DNA of 32,000 bases from Hymenobacter setariae. GTDB taxonomy: Bacteria; Bacteroidota; Bacteroidia; Cytophagales; Hymenobacteraceae. Numbering within the stretch: position 1 is the first letter of the stretch; every line of letters starts with the position of its first letter. A program made the translations under genes and the position numbers. Positions 4,168 through 30,151 of this stretch are shown here, piece after piece. The DNA lies in the NCBI RefSeq assembly GCF_007713685.1, contig NZ_VMRJ01000007.1, positions 198,969 through 230,968 of the forward strand, in the 5' to 3' direction. Under the pieces are notes generated by a model, which saw nothing but the letters and a program-made list of their open reading frames with translations, was not told the DNA's origin and made no database searches.

Positions 4168-4204
4168 CGAGAGCCGCGCCTTCCGAACTGGCGGAAGGCG
4201 CGGC
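4163..4204 (-). terminator. rho-independent terminator after the sigma factor gene
   Basis: A 13-bp GC-rich stem (gccgcgccttccg at 4173-4185 with cggaaggcgcggc at 4192-4204) is followed on the minus strand by ctcgttttt. Confidence 0.55.
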
Positions 4205-4232
4205 CCTTTACAACGCAAAACGCGGCGGCAAG

Positions 4233-4793
4233 TTAGTCTTGCTCCGGCTCATCAAGAAGTACGGCTCCGGCGCGGTCGGCCCCAGCAGGGGCATACACGT
4301 GCAGAGCAGCTTTTAAGTCCTTGCGGGCGATGTGAATACGATTCTTCACAGTGCCAATCGGGATTTGCAGCTTCTCCGCAATCTCTAGGTACTTGTAGCC
4401 GATATAGTACATCATAAACGGCGTGCGGTAATCCGAGCCTAGGCTGGCAATGGCCTCGTTGATGTCGCGCACCACGAAATCGGTCGTTGCCCCGTTGTGC
4501 GTGATGTAGTTCTCGTCGGTATTGAAGTACTGGAAATACTCAGTCGAATCGATGTTCGAGCTGCGCTTGGTAATCTTGTTATAGTTGTTAATGAAGGTGT
4601 TGCGCATGATGGTGTACAACCATGCCTTCAAATTGGTACCAGCCTTAAATTTATCTTTGTTAAGCAGCGCTTTGAGTAGCGTTTCCTGGACTAAGTCCTT
4701 GGCATCGTCAGCGTCGCGGGTGAGGTTCATCGCCACGGGGCGGAGCGATGAAGATATTTTCTGCACTTGGGAAGTGAATTCCAGAGAAGTCAT
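4233..4793 (-). CDS. ECF-type RNA polymerase sigma-70 family factor
   Basis: Region 2 is DLVQETLLKALLNKDKF....LKAWLYTIMRNTFIN. Region 4 HTH is YLEIAEKLQIPIGTVKNRIHIARKDL. The ORF extends to 4838, but the Met at 4793 (MTSLEF...) gives a family-typical length. Confidence 0.85.
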   Translation of the reverse strand: MTSLEFTSQVQKISSSLRPVAMNLTRDADDAKDLVQETLLKALLNKDKFKAGTNLKAWLYTIMRNTFINNYNKITKRSSNIDSTEYFQYFNTDENYITHNGATTDFVVRDINEAIASLGSDYRTPFMMYYIGYKYLEIAEKLQIPIGTVKNRIHIARKDLKAALHVYAPAGADRAGAVLLDEPEQD

Positions 4794-4946
4794 ATTGTTG
4801 AAGGGTTCGTAGCAGAATCTTAAACAAAGGTAGACCACAAGTGAGAAAAACGGCTCGATAGCAGCAGTTTTTTTTGAATACCTGCGCCAACCCGCGTAGC
4901 CCCGCCCGATTACGCAAATAAGAGACGCTTAGGTCGTGGTCTTGCT

Positions 4947-5867
4947 TTACTTTTCTGTTAACTGCGCTTCAACTACTTGATTTATAACGGGAATTAAATC
5001 ACGAAATTCGTGTAGGCATGCCATTGGCAAGCAGCCCTCGGGTAGCTGTTTGGCTTGTACCGCCAGTGTCCCGAATAATAGTAGCGTAGCATCGGGGTAC
5101 TGCTTGCGCAGCTCGTCGGCATAGTTGTTTAACTGAGCACGAGCCGGCGTAGTGGTAAGCACGGTAGCCAGCACGGTGGGCTGGAAAGTCCGCGCCGCCG
5201 CTATGATGTCGGGCAGCGGCAGGTTGGGCCCTAGATACAGCACTTGCTGGCCGCGGGCCCGCAGGGCGTAGTTCATGAAGAGCAAGGCCAGCTCTTGCCA
5301 CTCGCCCTCAGGCAGGAAAAGCAGCCAGCGGGGTGCATCGGCTTGGCTGAGCGGAATCAGGGGCAAAGCATCGGCCGAGGCCATTAGCTCTTGGCGCAGC
5401 AGTTGCGCCACTAGGCGCTCTTGAGCCACGCTCAGTGAGCCTTCCTTCCACGACACACTCAGGCGCTGTAGCAGGGGGTAGCCGAGCCGCAGCAGGGCGT
5501 CTTCAGGGCCAAGCTGCTCGATGGCTTCATCGAAAAGGCGGTGCAGGCGGGGCTCGTCGAGGTCGAGTGTAGCGCCCAGCATGGCATTGAGGCGGGCAAA
5601 ATCGGCGGGCTGAACTTCGTTGCAAAGCGACAAGGCAGCGGTTTGGCACTCCTCTTCGCTTAGGCGCACCACCTGCGAAATGCGCTGCCCACGCGCGCAC
5701 AGTGCCGCTACGTTGAGCAGGCGGCGCAAGTCAGCCTCCCCATAGGTGCGGATATTGGTAGTAGTACGGCTGGGGCTCAGCAAGTTGTAGCGTTGCTCCC
5801 AGATGCGAATAGTATGAGCTTTGACTCCAGAGAGTTGCTCTAAATCGCTGATAGAATAACGAGCCAC
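4947..5867 (-). CDS. MerR-family transcriptional regulator with a CarH/LitR-like C-terminal B12-binding-like domain (canonical His ligands absent)
   Basis: The N-terminal MerR HTH is YSISDLEQLSGVKAHTIRIWEQRY. The C-terminus has a four-helix-bundle-like segment with W-x9-E-R, then a Rossmann-like segment LFLPEGEWQELALLF..RARGQQVLYLGPNLPLPDII resembling the cobalamin-binding domain. Confidence 0.85.
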   Translation of the reverse strand: MARYSISDLEQLSGVKAHTIRIWEQRYNLLSPSRTTTNIRTYGEADLRRLLNVAALCARGQRISQVVRLSEEECQTAALSLCNEVQPADFARLNAMLGATLDLDEPRLHRLFDEAIEQLGPEDALLRLGYPLLQRLSVSWKEGSLSVAQERLVAQLLRQELMASADALPLIPLSQADAPRWLLFLPEGEWQELALLFMNYALRARGQQVLYLGPNLPLPDIIAAARTFQPTVLATVLTTTPARAQLNNYADELRKQYPDATLLLFGTLAVQAKQLPEGCLPMACLHEFRDLIPVINQVVEAQLTEK

Positions 5868-9846: not shown

Positions 9847-9888
9847 AAAGCGAGCCGCATGAACAGCTCCGCAATATAACTGACCAGC

Positions 9889-10323
9889 TTAGCCTAACAC
9901 CATCTTATAGTGCTGAATGTCGCACTCCTCGAACATCTCCCCTACTTTCTGAAAGCCGGTGCGCTCGTAAAGCGGAATGGCGCGCAGCTGCGCGTGCAGG
10001 TATACCTGGGCCGCGTCGGGTGCCTCGGCGCGCACATCGGCCAGCACGGCTTGCACCAGCGCGGTGCCTACACCTTGATTGCGAAACTCGTCGAGCACGG
10101 CGAAGCGCTCCAGTTTCACGCCCTTGTCAGTGGGGCGCCAACGTGCGGCGCCGGCGGGCTGGCCGTCTACTCGAACTAGATAGTGGCGGGTGGTGGCTTG
10201 GCGGTCGTGCTGGTCGTATTCGTCGTCGGCGGGCACGCCTTGTCCTTGCACAAACACTTTTTCGCGGATGGTGAAGGCAGCGTCGAGGTCGCGCAGGTCA
10301 GATACTTTGCTGGCAGTAGTCAT
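9889..10323 (-). CDS. GNAT family N-acetyltransferase
   Basis: 144 aa with the acetyl-CoA binding motif A (FRNQGVGTALV) and typical GNAT length. Confidence 0.85.
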   Translation of the reverse strand: MTTASKVSDLRDLDAAFTIREKVFVQGQGVPADDEYDQHDRQATTRHYLVRVDGQPAGAARWRPTDKGVKLERFAVLDEFRNQGVGTALVQAVLADVRAEAPDAAQVYLHAQLRAIPLYERTGFQKVGEMFEECDIQHYKMVLG

Positions 10324-10414
10324 GGGGAGAACAGTAGGAAGTTACCTAGGGCGCAAATATCCGGGCTGGGCCGCGCACCTAAGTAATAGGCAGCATTGAC
10401 AGCCTCTCCCTATT

Positions 10415-17250: not shown

Positions 17251-18801
17251 CTACTTACTGGTCATGAGTGCGGCCATCGTCTCGATGCCATCCCAGAGGT
17301 TACCTAGGCGAATGTTCTCGTTTTCGGCGTGCTGGTTGTTGTCGTAGTTGGCCACAGGCACGGTGAGCGTAGCGGCGCCCAGCTCCTGCTTGAACACGTA
17401 GAGTGGCAGGCTACCGCCCGAGGTGGGCAACAGCACAATGGGCTGCGCTACGGTCGATTGTACGGCCTGCACTACACTGCGCGCTACGGGCGCGTCCATG
17501 GGGGTGCGCTGGGCATTGTAGCCGGTTTCGGGCGCCACGCGCACTAGGCGCGGGTGCTGAGCGCGCTCGGCATCAGTGGGCTCGGCGCGGGTCACGAAGT
17601 AGCCTTGGTGCTGAATATGACGCACTACTTTCTCGATTTGGCGCTGATAATCATTACCTAGCACCAGGCGCAGGTCGAGCATGGCCTCGGCGGTCGTCGG
17701 GATGACGTTGGCCGCCTGCGCGCCCACGTTGGCGCTGCGCAGGCCATTGATATTTAGCGAGGGCTGGTTTAGAAGCGCTACCAGCGACTGGCCCGCGCCA
17801 TCGGGCTGGGCAAAGCCCAGCTCGCGCTGCAAGTTGGCCTCCACGGCGGGCACGCGTCGCACGGCCTCTAGCTCAGCCGCAGTGAGGGGCACTACATCAT
17901 CGTAGAAGCCGGCGATGGTGACGCGGCCAGTGCTGTCTTTCATAGAGGCCAGTAGCTGGGCCAGCCCTAGGGCGGGATTGGGTGCCCAGTTGCCGTAGTG
18001 ACCACTGTGCAGCGGGCGCTTGGGGCCATACACGGTGAGACCGACGTTGACATCGCCACGGGCGCCGAACACCACCTGCTTGCGGCCCGACTGGTGCACC
18101 GGACCATCGCAGATTATCCAGAGGTCCGACTTCAATAGGTCGCGGTGCTGGTGCAGCAGCTCGGCCAAGTGCGGCGAGCCTTTTTCCTCTTCGCCTTCGA
18201 AGAAGAATTTGAGATTAACAGTGGGCTTGATGCGGCGCTGGGCTAGGGCTTGGTAAGCTGCCAGAATGCTCATTACCCCAGCCTTATCGTCGGAACTGCC
18301 GCGGGCGTAGAGACGCCAGTCGGGATTGAGTGGGGTGCCGGGCGCGGGAAGTGGCAGCAGTTGGCCGCCGCTGGCCAATGAACCGCTGGCCAACACGGGC
18401 TTAAACGGGCTCAGGCCGGGCGCCCACTGGGCGGGGTTCACGGGCTGGCCATCGTAATGGGCGTAGAACACCAGCGTGCGAGTGGCGCCCGGCACGCGCA
18501 CCTCGCCAAACACAGCGGGCGGCACGCCGGGCGTGGTGGTCCGCAGCAATTGCACGTTGGCCAAGCCGCGCTGGCGCATCATGTCGGCGATGATAATGGC
18601 CGTGCGACGCAGCCCCGCGCTGTCGGCCGCCACGCTCGGAATGGCTAGCAGCCGCAGGTATTCGGCCAGAAGTTCGTGCTCGTGCTGCTGGCGGTACTGC
18701 CGCACCTGCTGCAAGATGGTAGCGGCCGGCACAGCTGCCAGCAAGAGCCCTAGGATAGTTACTACGCCGAGCAAACGGCCAAACGAGCAGGAGTGCTTCA
18801 T
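17251..18801 (-). CDS. M20 family metallopeptidase/dipeptidase (secreted)
   Basis: Contains AHYDGQP, RGSSDDKAG and FFFEGEEEKGS metal/catalytic motifs. A signal peptide starts at the Met at 18801 (MKHSCSFGRLLGVVTILGLLLAA). The 87 extra codons in the track read through a palindromic repeat. Confidence 0.85.
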   Translation of the reverse strand: MKHSCSFGRLLGVVTILGLLLAAVPAATILQQVRQYRQQHEHELLAEYLRLLAIPSVAADSAGLRRTAIIIADMMRQRGLANVQLLRTTTPGVPPAVFGEVRVPGATRTLVFYAHYDGQPVNPAQWAPGLSPFKPVLASGSLASGGQLLPLPAPGTPLNPDWRLYARGSSDDKAGVMSILAAYQALAQRRIKPTVNLKFFFEGEEEKGSPHLAELLHQHRDLLKSDLWIICDGPVHQSGRKQVVFGARGDVNVGLTVYGPKRPLHSGHYGNWAPNPALGLAQLLASMKDSTGRVTIAGFYDDVVPLTAAELEAVRRVPAVEANLQRELGFAQPDGAGQSLVALLNQPSLNINGLRSANVGAQAANVIPTTAEAMLDLRLVLGNDYQRQIEKVVRHIQHQGYFVTRAEPTDAERAQHPRLVRVAPETGYNAQRTPMDAPVARSVVQAVQSTVAQPIVLLPTSGGSLPLYVFKQELGAATLTVPVANYDNNQHAENENIRLGNLWDGIETMAALMTSK

Positions 18802-18868
18802 GCACCCAAGTAAGGCGATAGAAACCGAAAGGCAGTAGTGACTACATCTGTAGTCACTTGGCTGCTGT

Positions 18869-18980
18869 GTGACCCCACCCCCGGCCCCTCCCCTCCGGGA
18901 GAGGGGTGCCAACCGCAAATAGACGTTGGCAAACGTCAGGCACCCCTCTCCCGGAGGGGAGGGGCCGGGGGTGGGGTCAC
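18869..18980. repeat. GC-rich palindromic repeat element, copy 1 (REP/MITE-like)
   Basis: Perfect 42-nt inverted arms (gtgaccccacccccggcccctcccctccgggagaggggtgcc and its exact reverse complement) flank a 28-nt loop. A related copy lies at 27719-27825. Confidence 0.8.
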
Positions 18981-19127
18981 ACGTCCACCGAGCCAGGCCT
19001 ACACAAAATTCGAGACTTGCTTTAACCGCCAATAATTGACACCACCATTCACATTTTTTCACGTCATTTGGTGCTGGCTGGCGCGTGGGTTTTCAGCGGT
19101 TGGTTACGCACGCCCAGCATCCCTCCT

Positions 19128-20216
19128 ATGGCTTCATCTCGACTCGCGTTTTTCCTGCTTTGCTGGCTGGTGCTGCCCCTAGGTGGTCGGGCGCAGGCGG
19201 CGTACCCCACGCCGGTACCCGGCGATTTTACGCTGAATAATTTTCGCTTTGTGAGCGGCGAAACGCTGCCCGCGTTGCGCCAGCACTACACCACTGTTGG
19301 GCAACCTAAGCGCGATAAAGCCGGCCACGTTACCAACGCAGTGCTCATCATGCACGGCACCACGGGCGCGGGCACCAGCTTCTTGACCGACCTATTTGCC
19401 GGGCACTTGTTTGGGCCGGGGCAACCGCTGGATGCGGCCAAGTACTACGTCATCTTGCCCGATGCCATCGGCCACGGCAAGTCGAGCAAGCCCAGCAACG
19501 GGCTGCGCATGAAATTTCCGAAATACACCTACGACGACATGGTGATAGCCAACTATCGCCTGCTAACCGAGCACCTCGGCGTGGCCCATTTACGCCTGGT
19601 GATGGGCACCTCGATGGGCGGCATGGAAACCTGGGTATGGGGCTACACCTACCCCGGCTTTATGGATGCCCTGCTGCCCCTGGCCAGCCTGCCCGTGGAG
19701 ATAGCCGGCCGCAACCGCATGCTGCGCAAAATGGCCATCGACCTGATACAGATGGACCCCGCCTGGCAAGGCGGCAACTACACCACCCAGCCCAAAGTGG
19801 GCCTGGCCGGCGCTTCCTCCTCGATGATAGTGATGGGCAGCAGCCCCAAGCAAATGCAAAAGCTGGCGCCCACACGCGAGTTGGCCGAGGCCACCCTTGC
19901 CAAGACCGAAGCCAACTTCTACCGCACGCTCGACGCCAACGACTTTATCTACCAGTTCGACGCTTCACGCGATTACAACCCCGCCCCGCACCTAGGGAGC
20001 ATCAAGGCGCCGCTGTTTGCCATCAACTCAGCCGACGACCAGGTGAACCCGCCTGAGCTAGGTATTCTGGATGTCGAGATTAAGAAGGTATCCAAGGGCC
20101 GCTACATTTTGCTGCCCATCACGGACCTCACTACTGGGCACGGCACCCACTCCAACCCCGCCATTTGGGGCAGCTATTTGCAAGAATTGTTGGCCCTGAC
20201 CGATAAGCCGCAATAG
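19128..20216 (+). CDS. secreted alpha/beta hydrolase, homoserine O-acetyltransferase (MetX)-like fold
   Basis: The Met at 19128 gives a signal peptide (MASSRLAFFLLCWLVLPLGGRAQA). It has the HGTTG oxyanion region, the nucleophile elbow GTSMGG and a C-terminal GH. Confidence 0.8.
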   Translation: MASSRLAFFLLCWLVLPLGGRAQAAYPTPVPGDFTLNNFRFVSGETLPALRQHYTTVGQPKRDKAGHVTNAVLIMHGTTGAGTSFLTDLFAGHLFGPGQPLDAAKYYVILPDAIGHGKSSKPSNGLRMKFPKYTYDDMVIANYRLLTEHLGVAHLRLVMGTSMGGMETWVWGYTYPGFMDALLPLASLPVEIAGRNRMLRKMAIDLIQMDPAWQGGNYTTQPKVGLAGASSSMIVMGSSPKQMQKLAPTRELAEATLAKTEANFYRTLDANDFIYQFDASRDYNPAPHLGSIKAPLFAINSADDQVNPPELGILDVEIKKVSKGRYILLPITDLTTGHGTHSNPAIWGSYLQELLALTDKPQ

Positions 20217-20250
20217 GCTACCTGGCAACTCACGCCGCCCTAGGTCCCCC

Positions 20251-20287
20251 GCCCCACCCTTTTCAGCGAAAGGGGGTGGGGCTTTTT
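20251..20287 (+). terminator. rho-independent terminator
   Basis: The 9-bp stem gccccaccc (20251-20259) with gggtggggc (20274-20282) is followed by tttttgg. Confidence 0.6.
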
Positions 20288-20428
20288 GGTAGCTCTCGGG
20301 TGCGCAGGAAACTGGCGCCAACTCCTTCGTAAGCACGGGTTTTTATTTCTTAGGCATATACAGTATCACTATTTCTAAAATTAGCTATACCTTACAAATG
20401 AAAATATATCTTCTCATAATCCCACCCA

Positions 20429-22408
20429 TTGCTTATGGCCACTTCGACTTCTACTCCTAAGATAAAAGTGGCCGTGCTGGGCGGCGGTGTGGCCGGCATG
20501 AGCGCCGCTCACGAGCTGGCCGAGCGAGGCTTTGCGGTGGATGTGTACGAGCGGCAGCCGGTGTACGTGGGCGGCAAAGCGCGCTCGGTAGACGTGCCCT
20601 TTGACAAGCTGCTGCACCTAGGCGAAACTGCCCTGCCCCCGGCGCCCAGCCCCGGCGACGCGCGCCGCCCCGACCTGCCGGGCGAGCACGGGTTTCGCTT
20701 TTTTCCGGGCTTTTACAAGCACATCACCGACACCATGAAGCGCATTCCCTACGGTACTAATCCGCAAGGGGTGTTCGACAATTTGGTGTCGTCGCAGCGG
20801 GTACTGCTGGCGCGGTTTGGCCAGGCACCCTTGCCAGCGCTGGTCAATTTTCCGAAGACCTGCGCCGACCTCGAAACCATTGTGCAGGACCTGACCCAGG
20901 CGCACACTGGGCTCACGGCCGCCGACAAAAAGCTGTTTGCCCGCAACCTGTGGCAGATTCTGACTTCTAGCTACGAGCGCCGCCAGCAGGTGTACGAGCG
21001 CCAAAGCTGGTGGGACTTCATGCAAACCGACGCCGAGCGCCACCGCGACTCGCTGCCGCCCTTGGCACCACTGCGCCCCGTCGCGCCCGCCGACGGCAAC
21101 CTAGGAGCGCCGGCCAGTACCAAGCCCGGCGTGCCTTTTCCCTACGAAGTGTACTGTGTGGGCGGCCTCACGCGCTCGCTGGTGGCGGCCCAGCCCAAGC
21201 TGATGAGCGTGAAAACCGGGGGCGACATTTTGCTGCAATTGCTGCTGCTCATCGGTGACCCCACGGCCCACACCGACCGCATTCTCAACGGACCTACCAA
21301 TGAGGTATGGCTTAAGCCCTGGCTGGACTACCTGACCACCCTAGGCGTGCGCTACCACCACCACCGCTACGCCACGCGCTTCGAGTGCGACCCCGATACG
21401 CGCCGCATCACGGCCGCCTTTGTGCGCCCCGACGTGGGCGATGCCGAAGAGCGCATCGAGGCCGATTACTACGTGGCCGCCGTACCCGTGGAGCAGATGG
21501 CCCAGGTGCTCAAAAACAGCCCCGACCTGCTGAAGATAGACGCCACGCTGGGCTTTATCGAGAAGCTGGCGGCCCCCGGCACCAAGGCCCTGAACTGGAT
21601 GAACGGCATCCAGTTTTACCTTAACCAAGACGTGCCGCTGGCGCCGGGCCACATCATTTGTCTCGACTCGCCGTGGGCGGTCACGGCTATTTCGCAGGCG
21701 CAATTTTGGCCGCAGCACCCGCTCAGCAGCTACGGCAACGGTGAGGTGAAGGGCCTGCTGTCGGTGGACGTCAGCAACTGGTTTGAGAAGGGCCTGAATC
21801 ATAAATCGGCCGAGAAGTGCACCCTGCCCGAAATAGTGCGCGAGGTGTGGGCCGAGCTCAAGAAAAGCCTGACGCAGGCCAACGGCGAGTGCCTGCTCAC
21901 CGACGAGATGTGCGTGGGCTGCTACGTCGATTCGGACATCGAGACCGGCACTAACCAACCGCTGCCACCGCCCATCAAAAGCCCCTTCGTGGCCGACCAC
22001 AACACTGAGCCGCTGCTCGTGAACACGGCCAACTCGTGGAGCCTGCGCCCCGAGAGCTTTTGCGGCGTCGAAAACCTATTTCTGGCTTCCGATTACGTGC
22101 GCACCAACACCGACCTGGCTACTATGGAAGGCGCCAACGAGGCCGCCCGCCGCGCTGTCAATGGCATTATCGCGGCCAGCGGCAGCGGGGCGCCGTTCTG
22201 CCAGATTTGGCAGCTGCACGAGCCCGACGTGCTGGCCGTGCTGCGCTGGCGCGACCGCCGGCGCTTTGCCAAGGGCCTGCCCTGGAGCGATGCCCTAGGT
22301 GACCTCCCCACCCGCCTGTTGCACGAGGCCAACTACTGGTGGCAGCACCTGCGCCGCCCGGCGCGGCGCCCGGCCGCCGCCGTTGCCAGCACCCTTTCGC
22401 CCGCTTAA
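20429..22408 (+). CDS. FAD-dependent oxidoreductase of the amine oxidase / phytoene desaturase (CrtI-PDS) superfamily, 659 aa
   Basis: The N-terminal motif is KVAVLGGGVAGMSAAHELAERGFAVDVYE....VGGKA. The C-terminal FAD motif is LFLASDYVRTNTDLATMEGANEAARRAVNGI. A long central insertion includes a Pro-rich low-complexity stretch. Confidence 0.85.
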   Translation: MLMATSTSTPKIKVAVLGGGVAGMSAAHELAERGFAVDVYERQPVYVGGKARSVDVPFDKLLHLGETALPPAPSPGDARRPDLPGEHGFRFFPGFYKHITDTMKRIPYGTNPQGVFDNLVSSQRVLLARFGQAPLPALVNFPKTCADLETIVQDLTQAHTGLTAADKKLFARNLWQILTSSYERRQQVYERQSWWDFMQTDAERHRDSLPPLAPLRPVAPADGNLGAPASTKPGVPFPYEVYCVGGLTRSLVAAQPKLMSVKTGGDILLQLLLLIGDPTAHTDRILNGPTNEVWLKPWLDYLTTLGVRYHHHRYATRFECDPDTRRITAAFVRPDVGDAEERIEADYYVAAVPVEQMAQVLKNSPDLLKIDATLGFIEKLAAPGTKALNWMNGIQFYLNQDVPLAPGHIICLDSPWAVTAISQAQFWPQHPLSSYGNGEVKGLLSVDVSNWFEKGLNHKSAEKCTLPEIVREVWAELKKSLTQANGECLLTDEMCVGCYVDSDIETGTNQPLPPPIKSPFVADHNTEPLLVNTANSWSLRPESFCGVENLFLASDYVRTNTDLATMEGANEAARRAVNGIIAASGSGAPFCQIWQLHEPDVLAVLRWRDRRRFAKGLPWSDALGDLPTRLLHEANYWWQHLRRPARRPAAAVASTLSPA

Positions 22409-22420
22409 TCTTCGCCCGCC

Positions 22421-23098
22421 GTGCTTGCCGTTATCCTCAATCTCAAAGATTATACGCCCTTCGAGCACGTGTGCTTTGCGGGGGGCTGCCTGCTGTGGGT
22501 GGTCGTGTACGTGTTCACTATTCGCGGCATCCGCACCCGGCAGTTTGTCGATATTCCTATCATTTCGGGCTGCGCCAATATTGCCTGGGAGTTCTTGTGG
22601 AGCTGGGTGTTTCACACCGACATGGGCGAGCTGTACGTGTGGGGCTACCGAGCCTGGTTTTTTCTGGATTGCTACATCGTGTACGGGTTTTTCCGCTACG
22701 GCTACAAGCAGATTCTCATTGCGCCGCTGGCCCGGCACGCGCGGCTGGTGCTGGCCTGCGGCATCGTGGGCTGGGGCGTGATGCTGTACTTCTACATCAA
22801 GCTCTACGATGCGCCCATCAGCCACATGGGCGCCTATTCGGGCTACATTCTCAGCATCTTGATGGGCATGCTCTACCTCACGCTTTTCTTGAGTATGAAC
22901 AACCTAGGGCTGTTTTCCTACACCTCAGTGTGGTGCGCGGGGCTCGGCAATTTACTCGTGACGCTGTTCTGCTTTTCGCATTTCACCGACTGGTTTTTGC
23001 TGTCGATGTGCGCCTTCACCACGCTGCTCAATGCGGCCTACATTGCCATCTTCACCCTGCAACGCAGCCAGCCCGCCGCGCAGCTAGCCACCGTATGA
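22421..23098 (+). CDS. polytopic membrane protein with a Pyr4/PaxB-like transmembrane terpene cyclase signature (putative)
   Basis: It has a GTG start 12 nt after the upstream stop. It is 225 aa with about 7 hydrophobic segments. IPIISGCANIAWEFLWS resembles, as I recall them, the conserved C-x-N-[IF]-A-W-E segment containing the catalytic Glu of fungal Pyr4/PaxB membrane cyclases. Confidence 0.6.
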   Translation: MLAVILNLKDYTPFEHVCFAGGCLLWVVVYVFTIRGIRTRQFVDIPIISGCANIAWEFLWSWVFHTDMGELYVWGYRAWFFLDCYIVYGFFRYGYKQILIAPLARHARLVLACGIVGWGVMLYFYIKLYDAPISHMGAYSGYILSILMGMLYLTLFLSMNNLGLFSYTSVWCAGLGNLLVTLFCFSHFTDWFLLSMCAFTTLLNAAYIAIFTLQRSQPAAQLATV

Positions 23099-24498
23099 GC
23101 GAGCGCACCCGCTGGGAAAAATACCTGTGGCACCCCCTAGGGTTTAAGGGGCTGAGCGAAGAGGAGTTTAAGCAACGCACCACGGCGGTGCGGCTCACGC
23201 TGTTTACGCTGCTGGGGGCCCTGCCCTACTCCATGCTCTATGCGTGGCTGGGGTTTCCGCTGGCGCCCATCGCTACGTTTATCTACGTAGGGTTTTCGGC
23301 GCTCAATCTGCTGGTGCTGTTCATCACCAAGCGCTACACGTTTTTCACCACTACGCAGCTGGTTTTTATTATCCTGAACCCCATTATGGCGCACGTGGCC
23401 ATCGGGGGGTTTATCGACAGCAGCGGCATCATTTTGTCGGCTATTCTGAGTCCGCTGGGGGCGTTGCTATTCACCAATTACCGCACGGCGCGCATCTATT
23501 TTTTCCTGTTTGTAGCCGATGTGGTGCTGGCTGGCGTCTGGGACTGGCAACACCTCGACCAGCAACCTAGGCTGCCTAAGGAGGTGCGCACTATCAGCTT
23601 CGTATCCAACATGCTCATCATCTGCTTGGTGGTGTATTTGCTGATTGAGGACACGCTGAAGAAGAAAGAGCAGGCCCAACAGCAACTCCAAAAATCGCTC
23701 GACCACCTACAAGCCACGCAGGCCCAGCTGGTGCAGCGCGAAAAAATGGCGAGCCTGGGCGAACTCACGGCCGGCATCGCGCACGAAATTCAAAACCCGC
23801 TCAACTTCGTCAACAACTTCGCCGAGGTCAGCGCCGAGCTGCTCGACGAGCTAGAAGAAGAGCAGCAGAAGCCCCAGCGCGACGCCTCCCTGGAAGCCGA
23901 GCTGCTGGCCGACGTGCAGCAGAACCTGCACAAAATCAGCCAGCACGGGCAGCGGGCGGGCAGCATTGTGCGGGCCATGCTCGAGCATAGCCGCAGCAGC
24001 ACCGGCGAGCGCCAGCCCACCGACCTCAACGCCCTCGCCGACGAATACCTGCGCCTAGCCTACCACGGCCTGCGGGCCAAAGACAAACTTTTCAACGCTA
24101 CCCTCGCCCTCGACTTGGCGCCCGACCTGCCCCTGGTATTAGGCGCCGGGGCCGACCTAGGACGCGTGCTGCTCAATCTATTCAACAATGCTTTCTACGC
24201 CGTGCACCAGCGCCAGCAGGCCGGCGAGCCCGACTACGCGCCCACCGTGGGCGTGGCCACGCGGGCCGTGGGCAACCGCGTAGAAGTGCGCGTACACGAC
24301 AACGGCGCGGGCATTCCGGCCAACATACAGGCCAAAATATTCCAGCCCTTTTTCACCACTAAGCCTACGGGCGAGGGCACCGGCCTGGGCCTTTCGCTCA
24401 CTCACGACATTATTGTAAACGGCCACGGCGGCACGCTTACGGTCGAAAGTCAAGTGGGGGTGGGTACTACGTTTGCCATTACGCTGCCAGGCACCTAG
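23095..24498 (+). CDS. sensor histidine kinase with a membrane-embedded multi-TM N-terminal sensor
   Basis: Its start ATG overlaps the upstream TGA (ATGA at 23095-23098). It has about six TM segments and a coiled coil (KKKEQAQQQLQKSLDHLQATQAQLVQ). The H-box is AGIAHEIQNPLNF. The N box is LLNLFNNAFYA, and the G boxes are DNGAGI and GEGTGLGLS. Confidence 0.85.
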   Translation: MSERTRWEKYLWHPLGFKGLSEEEFKQRTTAVRLTLFTLLGALPYSMLYAWLGFPLAPIATFIYVGFSALNLLVLFITKRYTFFTTTQLVFIILNPIMAHVAIGGFIDSSGIILSAILSPLGALLFTNYRTARIYFFLFVADVVLAGVWDWQHLDQQPRLPKEVRTISFVSNMLIICLVVYLLIEDTLKKKEQAQQQLQKSLDHLQATQAQLVQREKMASLGELTAGIAHEIQNPLNFVNNFAEVSAELLDELEEEQQKPQRDASLEAELLADVQQNLHKISQHGQRAGSIVRAMLEHSRSSTGERQPTDLNALADEYLRLAYHGLRAKDKLFNATLALDLAPDLPLVLGAGADLGRVLLNLFNNAFYAVHQRQQAGEPDYAPTVGVATRAVGNRVEVRVHDNGAGIPANIQAKIFQPFFTTKPTGEGTGLGLSLTHDIIVNGHGGTLTVESQVGVGTTFAITLPGT

Positions 24499-24520
24499 GT
24501 GCCTGGCCAACACCTAGCCT

Positions 24521-25342
24521 ATGCGCCGCTTCAGATACCTTGTTTTCTTGCTACTCTACACGCTGCTGGCAGCGGGGCAGGCCGTGCCCTACGGCCATAA
24601 CCCAGCCGCGGGCCACTACCAGGCCGTACGTGGCGTGCGGCTTTACTACGAAGAGTACGGCGCGGGGCCGCCGCTGCTACTCATTCACGGCAACGGCGGC
24701 AGCATCCAGGACTTCAAGCAGAACATTCCCTATTTCGCCAAGCACTACCGCGTGCTGGCGGTGGACAGCCGCGCCCATGGCCAGTCAGTAGACCCCGGCG
24801 ACTCGCTGAGCTTCGAGATGATGGCCGACGACTTTGCGGCCCTACTCACCAGCCTGCGCCTCGACTCGGCCTACGTGCTGGGCTGGAGTGATGGCGGCAT
24901 TAATGCCGTGGTGCTGGCCCTGCGCCACCCTAAGAAAGTGAAACGCCTGGCGGCCACCGGCGCCAATTTCTCACCCGACTCCACCGCCCTCACGCCCGCG
25001 CTGTGGCGCCAGCAGCAGCGCGGCTACCAAGAAAACAAAGGCAAAACGCTGACCGACCTAAAGTTAAAAAACGACTGGAAGGTGTTCACGCTCGACGTAT
25101 TCCAGCCCAACATGCCGCTGCCTAGGTTGCGCCAAGTGGCAGCGCCGGCCTTCATCATCGCCGGCGACCGCGACGTGATAACGCTAGAGCATACGGTGGC
25201 CATCTACCGCCACCTGCGCCGCGCCTGGCTCTGGATAGTACCCGATAGCGGCCACGCCACCTTGCAAGAACACGCCGACGAATTCAACCGGAAAGTGGAC
25301 GCTTTCTTTCGGGCAAAGCGTATTTCAAACGCTCCTCACTAA
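24521..25342 (+). CDS. secreted alpha/beta hydrolase
   Basis: It has a signal peptide, the LLLIHGNGGS oxyanion region, the nucleophile elbow GWSDGG, and C-terminal D...SGH. Confidence 0.85.
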   Translation: MRRFRYLVFLLLYTLLAAGQAVPYGHNPAAGHYQAVRGVRLYYEEYGAGPPLLLIHGNGGSIQDFKQNIPYFAKHYRVLAVDSRAHGQSVDPGDSLSFEMMADDFAALLTSLRLDSAYVLGWSDGGINAVVLALRHPKKVKRLAATGANFSPDSTALTPALWRQQQRGYQENKGKTLTDLKLKNDWKVFTLDVFQPNMPLPRLRQVAAPAFIIAGDRDVITLEHTVAIYRHLRRAWLWIVPDSGHATLQEHADEFNRKVDAFFRAKRISNAPH

Positions 25343-25356
25343 AAAATACCCTAACA

Positions 25357-25447
25357 AAACGTCTGTCATGCTGAGCCCCGCGAAGCATCTCTCGCGCGTC
25401 CAACATGCGGTAGAGATGCTTCGCGGGGCTCAGCATGACAGACGTTT
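25357..25447. repeat. 91-bp perfect palindrome (36-nt arms); probable bidirectional terminator / REP-like element
   Basis: aaacgtctgtcatgctgagccccgcgaagcatctct (25357-25392) is the exact reverse complement of 25412-25447, with a 19-nt loop. It lies between convergent genes. Confidence 0.75.
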
Positions 25448-25472
25448 ATGTAGTTATTACACTGAATAGAAC

Positions 25473-25700
25473 TTATTCCCGCGTTAGCACCACCAGCACA
25501 ATTACTTGGCTGGGGTCTTTGGGCGAAAGCTTGTTCTCGAAGCTATCTAGCTCGTAGCCTTTCGCCAGCCACTCTTTCACCTCCGGGAAGGTTAGCAGTT
25601 CGGCTTTAGAAAAGGGCACGGGTTTAATCTTCTGGCCCTTCTTCGCCCCTTCAGAAAAGAAGGTCAGCATTTTGGTAGCCGGCAAGGTTTCTTCAGACAT
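25473..25700 (-). CDS. small hypothetical protein (75 aa)
   Basis: The ORF lies directly downstream of the M61-like peptidase on the same strand and has a Lys/Glu-rich soluble composition. No family was recognised. Confidence 0.45.
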   Translation of the reverse strand: MSEETLPATKMLTFFSEGAKKGQKIKPVPFSKAELLTFPEVKEWLAKGYELDSFENKLSPKDPSQVIVLVVLTRE

Positions 25701-25759
25701 ATTAGTGTGGATAAGTCAGTTAATCAATGTGGATAACCCACCACTATCGGGTGGCGTCG

Positions 25760-27574
25760 CTACAAATTGCGTAGCCAAGTGGCGCGGGCGGCCAGTTGCT
25801 CGGGCGTGGCGGCGGGGTCGGGCGCGAAGTAGTAGCGCTGAATTTCTTCGGCCGACGTCAGCTTGACGGGCACCTCCTTAGGGGCGGCTGTGCCGCGCCG
25901 AATGCGCAGCCCTAGGTCGGTGCCCGGTGTGCGGGCGGCCATGCGGCTCTTGCTGAGGCCAGCATAGGTAGGGCCCACCACGGGCACGTCGCCCACGGCC
26001 AGTAGCTCGTCGCCGGGCTGGATACCAGCGGCTTGCATGGCGGGGCTGGGTCGCTTGATGAACACGCTGCCGTCTTCGTGGCGGTCGTAGGCCACGGAGC
26101 CTAGGCTGGCCAGCTGGCGGCCGGTGTGGTGCGCCGCCTCGTAGCGGATGCCAATGCGCCCTAGGTACTGCTGCAAGGGCAGCGGCTCGGCGCCCTGCAC
26201 ATAGCGCTTAAAGAAGTCGCCAATCTCGGGGTAGGTCAGGGCGGTGAAATCCTGAAAGAAGTTCTGCTCTCTGATGGGGTGGTCGGGGCCGTATTTTTTG
26301 GCGAGCTGCAAGAGCACGTCGCGCAGGCCACGGGTACCGTGGCTTAGCTCCAGCAGGCGCAGGTCGAGCATGGTGGCGGTGAGGGCGCCGCGCTGGTAGA
26401 TGTTGCCGTATTGGCGCTGGCCCTCGTCGGAGAAAGACTTGAGACCTAGGCGACTGAGCGTGTATGTGGTATCGAAGTTGGCGCGGTCGGCCTGCTCCTT
26501 GTCGTGCAGCCCGGCGAGGTAATCGTTGAGTGGCACCAGGCCGCCGCGCAGCTGCATCATGTGGGCGGCCCACTCGGTCACACCCTCGTAGAGCCAGAGG
26601 TGCTCCGAGCCGGTAGGCTGCACGAAGTTGAAGTGCTCCACCACTTCGGAGTGGATGTTAAGCGGCGTCACGATGTGGAAGAACTCGTGGGCAGCAATGT
26701 CCACCACGTTTTGCCCAAACTCCGGCGTGAGTTCGCCCTCGCGCATAATGTATTCGGAGCTGTAGGAGTGCTCCCAGGCGCCGGCGCTTTTGTCGCTAAA
26801 CAGGTAGAGGAAGGCGTAGCGCTTCACCGGCAAATCGCCCCCTAGGAAGGCCTGCGCGGCGCCGAGCATCTTCTGCATGTGGCCGAGCAGCGGCTGGGCT
26901 TGCACTTGGCCCTTGGCCGAGTAACAGTAGAGGGCCACGTCAGCATTGCCTACTTTGGTGGTGGTGCTGGTGAGGTTGCCGAGCAAGAAGGGCGAGTCTA
27001 CGGCCTGGTCGTAGCTCTTGGCGTGGTAGTAACCCTCCTTATCGGGCACCAGCACGGTACCGACTTTCCAAGCATTGGGGTAGTTCAGCTTGAGGCGCAG
27101 CGGCTTGGCCTGCCAGCCCTGCGGGTAACCCAGCACGGTTTGGCCATTGACGAGGGCGTGGTCGGCCTCTAGCGACGAGCCGCACATCAGGTACACGTTG
27201 TGCTCGGGCACGGGCGTGGCCCAGGTTTCGGCAATGGTGTAGCGGATTTCGCGGGTCTTTTCGGGCTCAGCTAGCTCCCACTGGTTGGTGCTCAGCTGCT
27301 CGCTACCTAGGGGCTTGCCCTTGCTATCGAAAGCGGCAAAGTCGCGCACGTAGCGGCCCATGTCCATGACCTGGTAGGTGCCGGGCGCGGTGGCCGCAAA
27401 CTGGTACACGCCCTGCTCCTTGCTGAGCTTCGGCACTTCGAGCCGCACCTGAAATTGGTGGGCGGCTGCGGTAGGGTCCATCGAGACGGTGTAGGTGAGC
27501 TCGCGGGGCGCCTTCGAGGCGTAAGCGGGGGCCGCCGCGGCGAGCAGCAGGCTAAAAAGGGCAGCTAGTTTCAA
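25760..27574 (-). CDS. secreted zinc metallopeptidase (M61 glycyl-aminopeptidase-like) with a C-terminal PDZ domain
   Basis: It has a signal peptide MKLAALFSLLLAAAAPAYA. The zinc motif AAHEFFHIV is followed by WLYEGVTEW (gluzincin third-ligand region). A PDZ-like segment AAGIQPGDELLAVGD lies near the C-terminus. Confidence 0.75.
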   Translation of the reverse strand: MKLAALFSLLLAAAAPAYASKAPRELTYTVSMDPTAAAHQFQVRLEVPKLSKEQGVYQFAATAPGTYQVMDMGRYVRDFAAFDSKGKPLGSEQLSTNQWELAEPEKTREIRYTIAETWATPVPEHNVYLMCGSSLEADHALVNGQTVLGYPQGWQAKPLRLKLNYPNAWKVGTVLVPDKEGYYHAKSYDQAVDSPFLLGNLTSTTTKVGNADVALYCYSAKGQVQAQPLLGHMQKMLGAAQAFLGGDLPVKRYAFLYLFSDKSAGAWEHSYSSEYIMREGELTPEFGQNVVDIAAHEFFHIVTPLNIHSEVVEHFNFVQPTGSEHLWLYEGVTEWAAHMMQLRGGLVPLNDYLAGLHDKEQADRANFDTTYTLSRLGLKSFSDEGQRQYGNIYQRGALTATMLDLRLLELSHGTRGLRDVLLQLAKKYGPDHPIREQNFFQDFTALTYPEIGDFFKRYVQGAEPLPLQQYLGRIGIRYEAAHHTGRQLASLGSVAYDRHEDGSVFIKRPSPAMQAAGIQPGDELLAVGDVPVVGPTYAGLSKSRMAARTPGTDLGLRIRRGTAAPKEVPVKLTSAEEIQRYYFAPDPAATPEQLAARATWLRNL

Positions 27575-28038: not shown

Positions 28039-29076
28039 ATGCACAACCTAGTTTCCGCGCTGCAACCCGGCGACACGGTGCCCAACGGCCCGTTGCCCGA
28101 CGGCTCTACTCTATTTGAGCGGCGCGGCCGGCCTATTATCCTAGCCTTTGCCCCCACCGAATGGGACCCGGCGCAGGCGCACCAGAGCGCCATTTTTGCG
28201 CGCTTGTCGCAGGAGTTTGGCAGCGGCGTGGCCTTTGCGGAGGCAGCGCCCGAGGCGTGGCACTCGCTCGACTACCGCGGCGAGCTGGCGATACACCTAG
28301 GCGTAGCCGGACAGCGGGCGTTGCTACTGCTCGACGAAGAAGGCGTACTGCGTTGGAAAACGGTAGTCGAGCCCGGCCAGGATATACGCCCTGGGCAGGT
28401 ATTAGCGGCGCTGCAAGCACTGCGCCCCGAGCCGCTGGATGCCCCCGACCTAGCAGCTGCTAGCACAGAGGTACTAACCGGCGGAATGTCGCGCCGCACC
28501 TTCGTGATGGCCACGCTGGCGGCGGCGGCGCTGCTAGCGCTACCCAGCGTAGTAGCGGCGGCCCCGGAAACCGCTTTACCTAGCCCACCCCCTACCGACA
28601 ACCGCTCCGCTATGCTGCCTGTTGAACTGAACATTAACGGTAAGAGCCACCGCCTACAGCTCGACCCGCGCACGGCGCTACTCGATGCGCTGCGCGAAAA
28701 CCTCCACCTCACCGGCACCAAAAAGGGCTGCGACCACGGCCAATGTGGCGCCTGCACCGTGCACCTAGATGGCCACAGCGCCCTTTCGTGCCTCACGCTG
28801 GCCGTGATGGCGCAGGGCAAGGCCATCACCACCATCGAGGGCTTGGCGAAGGGCGACACGCTGCACCCCGTGCAAGCCGCGTTTATCAAGCACGACGCGT
28901 TTCAGTGCGGCTACTGCACGCCGGGCCAGATTATGTCGGCCTCCGCGCTACTCGCCGACCAGCACACGCGCCACGGCTCGGCGGTCGAAATCCGCGAGGC
29001 CATGAGCGGCAATTTGTGCCGCTGCGCCGCTTATCCCAACATCATCGCCGCCATTCAGGAGGCCCAACGCGCCTAG
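28039..29076 (+). CDS. (2Fe-2S)-binding small subunit of a PaoABC/xanthine-dehydrogenase-family molybdoenzyme, with an in-frame N-terminal redoxin-like extension
   Basis: The C-terminal 196 aa (from the Met at 28486) carry a Tat motif SRRTF, the plant-type cluster CDHGQCGACTV and the second cluster FQCGYCTPG...CRC. The upstream 149 codons are open in the same frame and resemble an AhpC/TSA-like fold without Cys. The real start could be 28486. Confidence 0.8.
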   Translation: MHNLVSALQPGDTVPNGPLPDGSTLFERRGRPIILAFAPTEWDPAQAHQSAIFARLSQEFGSGVAFAEAAPEAWHSLDYRGELAIHLGVAGQRALLLLDEEGVLRWKTVVEPGQDIRPGQVLAALQALRPEPLDAPDLAAASTEVLTGGMSRRTFVMATLAAAALLALPSVVAAAPETALPSPPPTDNRSAMLPVELNINGKSHRLQLDPRTALLDALRENLHLTGTKKGCDHGQCGACTVHLDGHSALSCLTLAVMAQGKAITTIEGLAKGDTLHPVQAAFIKHDAFQCGYCTPGQIMSASALLADQHTRHGSAVEIREAMSGNLCRCAAYPNIIAAIQEAQRA

Positions 29077-29098
29077 CCGCCCCAGCCCCTCCTAGCTC

Positions 29099-30151
29099 AT
29101 GCATCCGTTCCAATACCAGCGCGCCGAAAGCGGCGACCAAGCTGTGGCTGTCGTAGCCAAGAACCCCGACGCGGCGTTTATCGCCGGCGGCACGTCGCAG
29201 GTCGATTTACTAAAAGAAGGCGTGCACCAGCCCAGCCTGCTGGTAGATGTGGCGGGCCTGCCGCTGCGCCAAATCACTGATTTTGAAGGCGGCGTGCGCA
29301 TCGGCGCCAACGCCACTAATACCGAAGCAGCGTACTACCCTGCCATCCAGGCGCGCTACCCGGCCGTGAGCGAGGCGCTGCTGGCGGGGGCCTCGGTGCA
29401 GATTCGCAACATGGCCACCATGGCCGGCAACCCCTTGCAGCGTACGCGTTGCCCCTATTTCCGCGACTTAGACCAGCCTTGCAACAAGCGCACGCCGGGC
29501 AGTGGCTGCGCGGCCATCGGTGGCTACAACCACGTGCACGCGCTGTTTGGGGCCTCGGCAGCCTGCGTGGCTACCCACCCTAGCGACCTCGCCGTGGCCT
29601 TGTCCGCCCTCGATGCCCGCGTGCAAACCACCGGCCCCCGCGGCAGCCGCACCATCGCCTTCCCCGACCTGCACCGGCTGCCCGGCACCACCCCGCACCT
29701 TGACACCGTGCTAGAACACGGCGAGCTAATTACCAGCATCGACCTGCCCGCCTTCGCGGGCCGCTCGCACTACCTCAAGGTGCGCGAGCGCGCCTCCTAC
29801 GCCTACGCCCTCGCCTCGTGCGCCGTGGCGCTAGAGATGGACGGCGCCAAAATCAAGCGCGCCCGTATCGCCCTAGGTGGGGTGGCGCATAAGCCCTGGC
29901 GCGCCACACCGGCCGAGGCGCTACTCGCGGGCCAGCAGCCCACCGAAAAGTTGTTCCAGGCCGCCGCCGCGGCTGCCTTTGCCGACGCCAAGCCGCTAGA
30001 GCACAACGCCTACAAAATACCCATGGGCCGTAACCTGCTAGTGCGCGCCCTACTCGAAACCAGTGGCTTGCAGCCCTTGCAGGGCCCGGCCGGTACTGCC
30101 TTCGCGGCCAGCGTAGGCGGCATGGCCGGCCAGGTTGCCACTCCCAATTAA
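29099..30151 (+). CDS. FAD-binding subunit (CO dehydrogenase flavoprotein-like; PaoB/YagS-like)
   Basis: Contains MHPFQYQRA....AFIAGGTSQVDLLKEG and later ASVQIRNMATMAGN. Its position between the 2Fe-2S and Moco subunits fits this assignment. Confidence 0.85.
   Translation: MHPFQYQRAESGDQAVAVVAKNPDAAFIAGGTSQVDLLKEGVHQPSLLVDVAGLPLRQITDFEGGVRIGANATNTEAAYYPAIQARYPAVSEALLAGASVQIRNMATMAGNPLQRTRCPYFRDLDQPCNKRTPGSGCAAIGGYNHVHALFGASAACVATHPSDLAVALSALDARVQTTGPRGSRTIAFPDLHRLPGTTPHLDTVLEHGELITSIDLPAFAGRSHYLKVRERASYAYALASCAVALEMDGAKIKRARIALGGVAHKPWRATPAEALLAGQQPTEKLFQAAAAAAFADAKPLEHNAYKIPMGRNLLVRALLETSGLQPLQGPAGTAFAASVGGMAGQVATPN

Follow-up and report, generated by a model that had tools for sequence, protein, structure and literature searches.

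A conserved trio of flavoenzyme, Pyr4-like membrane protein and six-helix sensor in Bacteroidota points to possible signalling from a membrane lipid

Why should the gene for a terpene-cyclase-like membrane protein lie between that of a desaturase-like flavoenzyme and that of a histidine kinase, and overlap the latter? The question is raised by a stretch of 32,000 nucleotides (nt) from Hymenobacter setariae (assembly GCF_007713685.1, contig NZ_VMRJ01000007.1, positions 198,969-230,968, forward strand), hereafter called the window, which has a GC content of 59.7%; the source strain is a relative of H. bucti, and the genes flanking the unit are 90-94% identical between the two at the protein level. 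Four plus-strand genes between 20429 and 25342 encode, in this order, a flavin adenine dinucleotide (FAD)-dependent oxidoreductase of the phytoene desaturase (PDS)/amine-oxidase superfamily, a homologue of the Pyr4-like transmembrane terpene cyclases (TMTC), a histidine kinase whose sensor is embedded in the membrane, and an alpha/beta-hydrolase. An earlier interpretation made from the letters alone (the sequence-only reading) took all four for one unit and proposed that the kinase senses a membrane-resident lipid or terpenoid made or modified by the two upstream enzymes. Here we conclude that the first three genes very probably work together in signalling, and that the trio points to a mechanism, undescribed so far, by which a membrane lipid could be made into a signal.

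The evidence for this conclusion is mainly comparative. Relatives of the TMTC protein were present in 184 genomic stretches among 185,579 species genomes (one genome per species), and 80 loci were fetched via the alignment of TMTC homologues and annotated with tblastn and with profiles built for this analysis. In 47 loci, nearly all labelled Bacteroidota, the flavoenzyme gene lies directly upstream of the TMTC gene, and 40 of these contained sufficient downstream DNA to be informative. A same-strand signalling gene with an N-terminal multi-transmembrane (TM) segment directly follows the pair in 38 of the 40, in most loci at a distance of -30 to +30 nt from the TMTC gene and often overlapping it. 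Conservation of the oxidase-cyclase-kinase neighbourhood, which the sequence-only reading had named as a check on its proposal, was thus borne out, with an output that varies from locus to locus. The pair-bearing genomes belong to the Cytophagales, Chitinophagales, Sphingobacteriales, Saprospirales, Flavobacteriales and Marinilabiliales/Bacteroidales, and include Hymenobacter, Spirosoma, Dyadobacter, Fibrella, Adhaeribacter, Algoriphagus, Saccharicrinis, Saprospiraceae and Chitinophagia; starting from the flavoenzyme, the arrangement of pair and signalling gene was likewise observed in Algoriphagus. As for the two exceptions, L055 has a TM-kinase gene nearby on the opposite strand, and in L073, a Sporocytophaga metagenome-assembled genome (MAG; 8887-10347, minus strand), what comes after the pair is a photolyase/cryptochrome-like gene and a gene for a soluble kinase, with no TM sensor, a single case that hints at a possible link to light. 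Two loci carry labels from other phyla, L001 (Rhodanobacter sp. MAG), with a Hymenobacter-like module at 79-89% amino acid (aa) identity, and L037 (Bifidobacterium sp. MAG), with a Bacteroidota-type module; both are probably mis-binned.

The signalling proteins encoded downstream of the pair carry HisKA/HATPase domains in 23 loci, a class III adenylate/guanylate cyclase in eight (for example Algoriphagus L094:8578-9849) and a SpoIIE-type PP2C phosphatase in seven. The six-TM domain of the window-type kinase is present in 32 of these 38 proteins; the other six loci are divergent and have a different multi-TM segment that the sensor profile missed. Since the same domain carries different outputs beside the same enzyme pair, we regard it as a sensory input domain. 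Eight of the kinase-type loci continue after the kinase gene with a stand-alone receiver (122-128 aa), and most of these then encode a receiver-Guanylate_cyc protein of 346-349 aa (for example L018:10092-11505 and L020:10567-11987), which together are the likely cognate regulators of the kinases in those loci. The presence of the receiver-Guanylate_cyc protein after the kinases indicates that kinase-type and cyclase-type modules converge on cyclic nucleotide (cNMP) synthesis.

In the window the kinase gene spans 23095-24498 on the plus strand. Its first part (23095-23700) encodes the input domain, approximately aa 1-200, for which hydropathy predicts six TM helices within aa ~31-188 joined by loops of at most ~12 aa, in agreement with the earlier description of a kinase lacking a periplasmic domain and sensing through about six membrane helices. 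The second part (23701-24498) encodes a signalling helix and a HisKA-HATPase_c core (Pfam, aa 221-465), and the boxes H230, N 361, G1 402, F 416 and G2 428 place it among the class I HisKA kinases. No Pfam family matched the sensor (aa 1-215), even at E <= 10, and membership of MASE6 (PF20966) was rejected at the same threshold. A word-indexed search with the sensor alone returned one protein, and relatives were collected by exhaustive phmmer with aa 1-215 as the query, which gave 833 representative proteins that share the domain, always at the N-terminus. Among 87 long relatives, Pfam identified Guanylate_cyc in 35, HATPase_c in 25, SpoIIE in 12 and GGDEF in five, with EAL, Pkinase, MCPsignal, PAS and GAF also represented; four distant members of the 87 weakly matched MASE6 (E <= 1e-4). 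We therefore consider the sensor an unnamed MASE-like domain, as it has no Pfam match and only these four distant relatives show weak similarity to MASE6. It resembles MASE1-MASE9, 5TMR-LYT and 7TMR-DISM in being an all-membrane N-terminal module with minimal loops and many fused outputs, and differs from the described MASE domains in having no Pfam match and in that genes of its subfamily are consistently paired with those of two enzymes.

The junctions within the locus, read directly from the sequence, are equally tight. The flavoenzyme gene ends with TAA at 22406-22408 and is followed after a 12-nt spacer by the GTG start of the TMTC gene at 22421; the TMTC and kinase genes overlap by 4 nt in the ATGA at 23095-23098; and the kinase stop codon, TAG at 24496-24498, is separated by 22 nt from the hydrolase ATG at 24521. 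These are the spacings on one strand that the sequence-only reading had given. Upstream of its true start codon, the kinase frame remains open for ~750 nt, overlying the TMTC gene, which is read in a different frame (window 22339-24498), and mechanical calling of open reading frames (ORFs) consequently yields a spurious 719-aa 'kinase' in the window and ones of 530-680 aa in L001, L002, L005 and L009; this open frame is an annotation trap in GC-rich genomes of this kind. The 5' boundary of the unit is set by a terminator-like hairpin with a T-run at 20251-20282 on the plus strand (13-bp stem, 8 G-C pairs, TTTTTGG tail), which terminates the upstream alpha/beta-hydrolase gene (19068-20216). The gap before the module had been described as AT-rich and as containing a terminator; the terminator-like hairpin is there, whereas the gap as a whole (20217-20434) has 48% GC and its AT-richness is confined to the last ~105 nt. 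This leader (20330-20434, plus strand; 30.5% GC) is the putative promoter region of the module and contains one weak sigma-70-like match (20391-20420), and no exact copy of the Bacteroidota -7 motif TAnnTTTG was found in it. No RNA family was detected by Rfam across window positions 18500-26000. A reading of the locus as a defence system was rejected, as PADLOC returned a match to the Rossmann segment and generic kinase matches only.

Comparison with H. bucti (L029) showed that the TMTC gene and the sensor have been replaced together. In bins of 100 nt, DNA identity stands at 90-97% over the greater part of the flavoenzyme gene, falls to 45-75% across window positions ~22401-23700 (the TMTC gene and kinase aa 1-200; L029 7989-9300) and returns to 80-93% from the kinase core onward. 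The corresponding protein identities are 93% for the flavoenzyme, 50% for TMTC, 42% for the sensor and 82% for the kinase core. The window's cassette is much closer to two other Hymenobacter-like loci (TMTC 88% and 80%, sensor 67% and 72%), and that of H. bucti is nearest to Spirosoma- and Adhaeribacter-type sequences from the Cytophagales. The break-points of the mosaic in the H. bucti locus coincide with domain boundaries. Since the divergence is confined to this segment and each cassette has its nearest relatives elsewhere, we attribute the pattern to a single recombination event that exchanged TMTC and sensor as a pair. Across 33 taxa, TMTC and sensor identities were correlated with r = 0.80 (partial r = 0.69 given the flavoenzyme), and those of flavoenzyme and TMTC with r = 0.57 (partial r = 0.12 given the sensor), all being raw pairwise values uncorrected for phylogeny and hence only supportive. 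Together these results are evidence that, at the level of sequence, TMTC and sensor are bound more tightly to each other than either is to the flavoenzyme.

Such a bond may reflect what the kinase perceives, and here two explanations compete. We lean, by a modest preference, towards the full statement that the enzymes convert a resident membrane isoprenoid and that the six-TM domain reads the product or the state of the cyclase. Its main rival is sensing by contact, in which TMTC, with the flavoenzyme docked on it, would act as an accessory protein that touches the six-TM domain, so that the kinase monitors the conformation or occupancy of TMTC and no product diffuses. The replacement of TMTC gene and sensor TM domain as one cassette favours this alternative, as do their strong co-variation and the translational coupling at the ATGA, which implies matched stoichiometry. 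On the other hand, co-replacement would be equally expected if the specificities of a ligand and its receptor must match, and we consider contact sensing, taken over all the evidence discussed below, rather unlikely. That an enzymatic product and not protein contact would be the stimulus is nevertheless a weaker claim than that of a functional module.

The TMTC gene (22421-23098, plus strand) encodes 225 aa with seven TM helices and matches PF25129 with 51.9 bits, well above the gathering cut-off of 27 (E 1e-13, aa 15-188 on positions 17-188 of the 227 of the profile), which supports the 'cyclase-like' label first given to it. All 120 of the 120 TMTC homologues among the matches listed, from a total of 152, carry PF25129, and some have the NCBI name 'transmembrane-type terpene cyclase'. 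The AlphaFold 2 model has a mean predicted local distance difference test (pLDDT) score of 90.5, with helices at 13-39, 47-63, 70-97, 107-134, 138-158, 167-187 and 191-215. E15, E57, D83, D130 and D190 are invariant in 18 diverse TMTC proteins, in which many W, Y and F residues are conserved as well. Pyr4-like cyclases are seven-helix proteins in which a conserved glutamate has been proposed as the catalytic acid (PMC13307353 SI). E57 sits in the middle of TM2 of TMTC and, given the near-gapless match to the PF25129 profile, is a plausible equivalent of the catalytic Glu of Pyr4. A sequence search of the PDB with TMTC returned no match, and there was no solved Pyr4-like structure among the Foldseek matches of its model; these were weak similarities to other seven-TM proteins (SWEET, KDEL receptor and cystinosin; E 0.02, TM-score 0.58), on which we have not built. 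The weak likeness to SWEET and the KDEL receptor would nonetheless suit a protein that acts by contact.

Pyr4-like cyclases are class-II-like enzymes whose step follows that of an epoxidase in meroterpenoid and onoceroid pathways from fungi, and in a few from bacteria (PMC13307353, PMC11109268). The nearest known systems to TMTC are Pyr5/Pyr4 of pyripyropene, HomoM/HomoB of the fungal onoceroids and the bacterial XiaH, TylF and ZigF. Like them, TMTC belongs to PF25129, is ~225 aa long, crosses the membrane with seven helices and has conserved acidic residues inside the membrane, and its gene directly follows that of a flavin-dependent oxidoreductase, which echoes the logic of oxidation followed by protonation and cyclisation. 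In contrast to those systems, TMTC lies outside any biosynthetic gene cluster, with no gene for a prenyltransferase, polyprenyl synthase, P450 or polyketide synthase, its flavoenzyme is of the PDS/amine-oxidase type and not a class-A epoxidase, and its constant third partner is a signalling protein. No gene for a prenyltransferase, a polyprenyl synthase or a tailoring enzyme was found beside the module in the window or in the four neighbourhoods that were read in detail (Spirosoma, the MAG contig carrying P0100, Algoriphagus and Limibacter).

The flavoenzyme gene (20435-22408, plus strand; 657 aa) lies in an ORF that opens at 20429 with an alternative TTG start; the ATG at 20435 is the likely start, because homologues begin MA(V/T)STSTP. 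The Pfam families Amino_oxidase and NAD_binding_8 match the N-terminal part of the protein, the N-terminal dinucleotide-binding motif GGGVAGMSAAHEL and the C-terminal FAD motif TDLATMEGANEAARRA are invariant or near-invariant in 30 sequences, and GEHGFRFFPGFY is invariant in the family alignment. The AlphaFold 2 model (pLDDT 77.7; predicted template modelling score 0.82) had rice PDS, 5mog, as its top Foldseek match (E 3.7e-17, TM-score 0.78 normalised to the target), followed by oleate hydratase, NicA2, MAO, a CrtI-like desaturase and PPOX. Pfam, motifs and the PDS fold therefore agree on the amine-oxidase/phytoene-desaturase superfamily, as had been supposed. The more specific label 'CrtI-like' had to be abandoned, as the flavoenzyme is not CrtI and a bona fide CrtI is encoded at 2617-4086. 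In NCBIfam, no equivalog-level match to HpnE, PDS, ZDS, CrtI or CrtD was reached, the scores being 67.7 bits against a cut-off of 283 for HpnE, 47.6 against 622 for ZDS and 37 against 569 for PDS, and sequence matches in the PDB were restricted to the Rossmann segment. The protein thus resembles PDS, ZDS and HpnE in its GxGxxG Rossmann motif, its C-terminal FAD motif and its best structural match, and departs from them in its sub-cut-off scores, an identity to PDS of ~15%, family-specific inserts and a conserved C-terminal extension of ~70 aa. More than 7,900 homologues form a tightly conserved family with a typical length of 560-620 aa, which, judged on these comparisons, is distinct and coincides with no named enzyme of the superfamily. 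The name 'hydroxysqualene dehydroxylase' borne by some homologues looks like over-annotation, and the family has a single invariant Cys, which lends no support to the mention of an 'iron-sulfur cluster' in certain database names. The sequence-only reading had also remarked on a length well beyond that of CrtI and on a Pro-rich insertion; both exist, the extra length being in part due to two Hymenobacter-specific Pro-rich insertions (aa ~56-80 and ~205-232), with the correction that these are lineage-specific and that the family norm is shorter. The insertions have an AlphaFold pLDDT below 50 and are probably a disordered, lineage-specific decoration.

The place of TMTC beside the flavoenzyme can be taken by another membrane protein. 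In Limibacter (L096:7833-8504), a 223-aa membrane protein of family DUF6989 (PF22497) replaces TMTC between the flavoenzyme gene and a TM-PP2C gene, and in the metagenomic proteins P0163 and P0166 (785 aa; L095:5089-7446) the flavoenzyme continues at its C-terminus into DUF6989, next to a gene for a kinase. From this fusion it appears that a small polytopic membrane protein is physically joined to the flavoenzyme when it works. That DUF6989 can stand in for TMTC, and is fused to the flavoenzyme in some genomes, again suits contact sensing. DUF6989 was considered as a hidden TMTC or a CruF-like carotenoid hydratase, and both were rejected, as it has no similarity to the TMTC profile and no Pfam link elsewhere.

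A second type of module was found around a distant clade of TMTC proteins (36-43% identical), which is accompanied neither by the flavoenzyme nor by the six-TM protein and occurs in Ignavibacteriota, Acidobacteriota, Gemmatimonadota, Calditrichota, Leptospira, Uabimicrobium, Myxococcota and some Bacteroidota MAGs. In ~30 loci the TMTC gene adjoins genes for an MpaB/Lcp-like protein (PF09995) and for a giant Pkinase-AAA_16(-GAF-SpoIIE) protein of ~1,200-1,750 aa, the latter gene overlapping that of TMTC in the loci read in detail; TMTC is sometimes duplicated in tandem (loci L040-L079 and L086-L090, for example L089:2306-9384). Lcp and MpaB' oxygenases cleave the double bonds of polyisoprenoid chains. 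Because of this activity, we see in the combination of an isoprenoid-oxidising enzyme, a Pyr4-like protein and a signalling protein a recurring, interchangeable design. In TMTC, the invariant acidic and aromatic residues are shared by both module types, and their occurrence in a clade with another signalling partner points to chemistry and not to an interface with the six-TM domain, contrary to what contact sensing would lead one to expect.

Returning to conversion and sensing of a membrane isoprenoid, the reading that we prefer, we can outline how such a module might operate. Given its PDS-like fold, the flavoenzyme probably works at the surface of the membrane and takes a long, hydrophobic isoprenoid as its substrate, which, as the module has no gene for making a prenyl chain, should be an existing lipid. 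The flavoenzyme and TMTC, the latter as a cyclase of the proton-initiated type, would both be active enzymes and would act on the polyprenyl chain of menaquinone, on a carotenoid or on a squalene-type lipid. The six-TM domain of the kinase, translated in step with TMTC through the ATGA, would read the product in the bilayer or the occupancy of TMTC, and a continuous helix would relay the signal to the HisKA/HATPase core. Depending on the output domain, the signal could become phosphorylation, cNMP or the dephosphorylation of a partner-switching protein. In the window's host, the phosphoryl group would pass to two proteins whose genes lie elsewhere in the genome, a stand-alone receiver and a receiver-adenylate/guanylate cyclase, so that the final output would be a cyclic nucleotide; by analogy with the eight loci described above, these are the most likely target of the kinase.

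Several points weigh against this proposal. The members of the module are known as genes and not from a metabolite, an activity or a phenotype, and their co-transcription is suggested by gene spacing alone, with a promoter presumed in the AT-rich leader. The module includes no prenyltransferase or terpene synthase, so that the substrate is a guess. The occurrence of DUF6989 in the place of TMTC is as compatible with a role as scaffold or partner as it is with catalysis, and the identity correlations carry the limit given with them. Distant relatives of the sensor, such as a PAS-GGDEF-EAL protein and another kinase, have no adjoining TMTC, and the partnership with the enzymes therefore marks a subfamily and not the whole superfamily. 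Finally, a receiver domain is absent from all ORFs of at least 60 aa in the window, which leaves the kinase there without a response regulator and in this sense an orphan, as had been noted before. What stands of the earlier proposal is a functional tie of the kinase to both upstream genes, strongly supported by the trio in 38 out of 40 loci, the swapping of outputs, the co-replacement and the co-variation, and the remaining part, a terpenoid that is made or modified and then sensed, goes a step beyond these observations.

The same genes might also be read as an ordinary pigment or lipid operon, in which flavoenzyme and TMTC would serve bulk biosynthesis, for example as a carotenoid desaturase and cyclase, with the kinase as a neighbour or feedback regulator. 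The PDS-like fold and the Pyr4-like cyclase family are compatible with this, and a light-regulated crtI-crtB cluster is present in the window, where no gene for a lycopene cyclase is apparent. However, this cluster (45-5867) lies 14 kb away with unrelated genes in between, and the four neighbourhoods read in detail show no terpenoid gene around the module. Moreover, no neighbour is more constant than the signalling gene, the link to which persists while the output changes, and the TMTC clade of the Leptospira/Ignavibacteriota type keeps its link to signalling proteins as well. The 184 TMTC stretches are also far below the number of pigmented Bacteroidota. We therefore regard a pigment operon as very unlikely.

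In its arrangement, the module is reminiscent of known pairs of a signal synthase and a multi-TM kinase, namely CqsA/CqsS, LqsA/LqsS, RpfF/RpfC and AgrBD/AgrC. As in the CqsA/CqsS-type pairs, enzyme genes adjoin that of a kinase with a sensor of 5-7 TM helices for a hydrophobic small molecule that these enzymes produce. The likeness ends there, as the chemistry of the module is entirely different, its output is interchangeable and there is no evidence of a signal leaving the cell; none of our searches of the module revealed homology to CqsA/CqsS. A second parallel is offered by the intramembrane-sensing kinases that rely on accessory membrane proteins, with BceS reading the BceAB transporter and LiaS reading LiaF. 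These kinases likewise have no extracytoplasmic domain and are encoded with the membrane partner on which they depend, whereas the partners in the present module are enzyme-like and not a transporter or inhibitor, and its sensor has six TM helices instead of two. For CqsS as for BceS and LiaS, the apparent likeness is one of function and not of homology.

We found no literature, in a search that did not cover every journal, linking Pyr4-like proteins, DUF6989 or the sensor domain to signal transduction, and none of relevance on MASE6, on Pyr4-like proteins in Bacteroidota, on terpene cyclases with kinases or on terpenoid quorum sensing. A 2026 survey of 1,107 bacterial Pyr4-like sequences retained the 264 that had terpenoid genes within 20 kb and set aside the remaining 843 'standalone loci' as unlikely meroterpenoid enzymes, leaving their role open (PMC13307353 SI). 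The module gives a testable role to at least part of these cyclases, approximately three quarters of the bacterial total, that genome mining has discarded (PMC13307353 SI). Its sensor domain is also new, and the neighbouring enzymes are evident candidates for the supply of a ligand; such a clue is rare for MASE-type domains, the stimuli of which are almost all unknown. In the adenylate-cyclase versions, what a sensor of this integral-membrane kind responds to could be read out directly. As a tentative generalisation, which we hold to be possible but on balance doubtful, the standalone bacterial Pyr4-like cyclases may, instead of making natural products, form the signal-generating core of a widespread and undescribed class of modules, in which a housekeeping membrane isoprenoid, for instance a carotenoid or the side chain of menaquinone, is oxidised and cyclised into a terpenoid messenger that a dedicated receptor reads. 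If so, the oxidative partner would be a PDS-like flavoenzyme in Bacteroidota and an MpaB/Lcp-like oxygenase in other phyla, and the receptor would drive cNMP synthesis, a phosphorelay or partner-switching and could report on quinone or redox state, oxygen or light damage. Were the product released, a terpenoid autoinducer would become conceivable, in a phylum without an established quorum-sensing chemistry.

The fourth gene of the locus (24521-25342, plus strand) encodes a 273-aa alpha/beta-hydrolase (Pfam Abhydrolase_1) with a GWSDG nucleophile elbow. The sequence-only reading had counted it as part of the unit, and as an integral member it might, for example, release or degrade the signal. 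The gene is on the same strand, only 22 nt from the kinase gene with no terminator-like site in between, and it has been kept with the module in H. bucti (L029). Against this, H. bucti is the only one of the 80 loci with a positional homologue after the signalling gene, the other 79 lacking it, including the Hymenobacter-like L001 and L002; L005 and L009 gave only weak matches of 28% identity, located upstream on the opposite strand. The N-terminus of the hydrolase resembles an export signal, unlike those of the other three products, and a TAnnTTTG motif of the -7 type lies at 24468-24475, 53 nt before its ATG (~0.5 such motifs being expected by chance in the unit). Owing to this motif and to the restriction of the positional homologue to H. 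bucti, the hydrolase is probably a passenger; a functional role for it in the module appears highly improbable, and the unit is thus reduced to three genes. A perfect 20-nt palindrome, CCAGGCACCTAGGTGCCTGG, spans the kinase stop codon at 24488-24507, and either it or the TAnnTTTG motif could bear on separate expression of the hydrolase.

The 91-bp palindrome that had been described as perfect and as closing the unit does exist at 25357-25447, as a GC-rich hairpin, but its 41-nt arms around a 9-nt centre are 95% complementary, and its specificity for the unit was not borne out. It lies between the hydrolase gene and a convergent 75-aa ORF (25473-25700, minus strand), has as RNA a folding energy of -84.5 kcal/mol (z = -15.6), and is likely a bidirectional terminator or an element resembling repetitive extragenic palindromes. 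No further copy of its arm was found in the window or in the 96 fetched loci, where it is thus not multicopy, and H. bucti has an 80%-similar palindrome in the equivalent position. A second palindrome of unrelated sequence, at 18867-18982, is perfect and very GC-rich (44-nt arms, 28-nt centre), contains nested palindromes and is situated between divergent M20/M28 peptidase and alpha/beta-hydrolase genes. Since this unrelated palindrome is only 6 kb away from the first, long intergenic hairpins look like a generic feature of this genome.

The remaining genes of the window include the light-regulated carotenoid cluster on the minus strand, which comprises IspH/LytB (45-908), an unassigned 197-aa ORF (985-1578), the phytoene synthase CrtB (1669-2514), the full-length CrtI mentioned above, an ECF sigma factor (4233-4838) and a MerR-B12-binding regulator similar to CarH/LitR (4947-5867). 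On the plus strand, 28039-30151 encodes the [2Fe-2S] and FAD-binding subunits of a molybdoenzyme of the xanthine-dehydrogenase/CO-dehydrogenase type, the large-subunit gene of which presumably follows next. Genes for M61 and M28/M20 peptidases recur one to three genes away from the module in Hymenobacter, Spirosoma, a Bacteroidota MAG and a locus of the second module type (window 25760-27574 and 17251-19062, both minus strand; L081:12198-13883; L083:3564-5279; L086:6869-8755), which may be coincidence or residual synteny.

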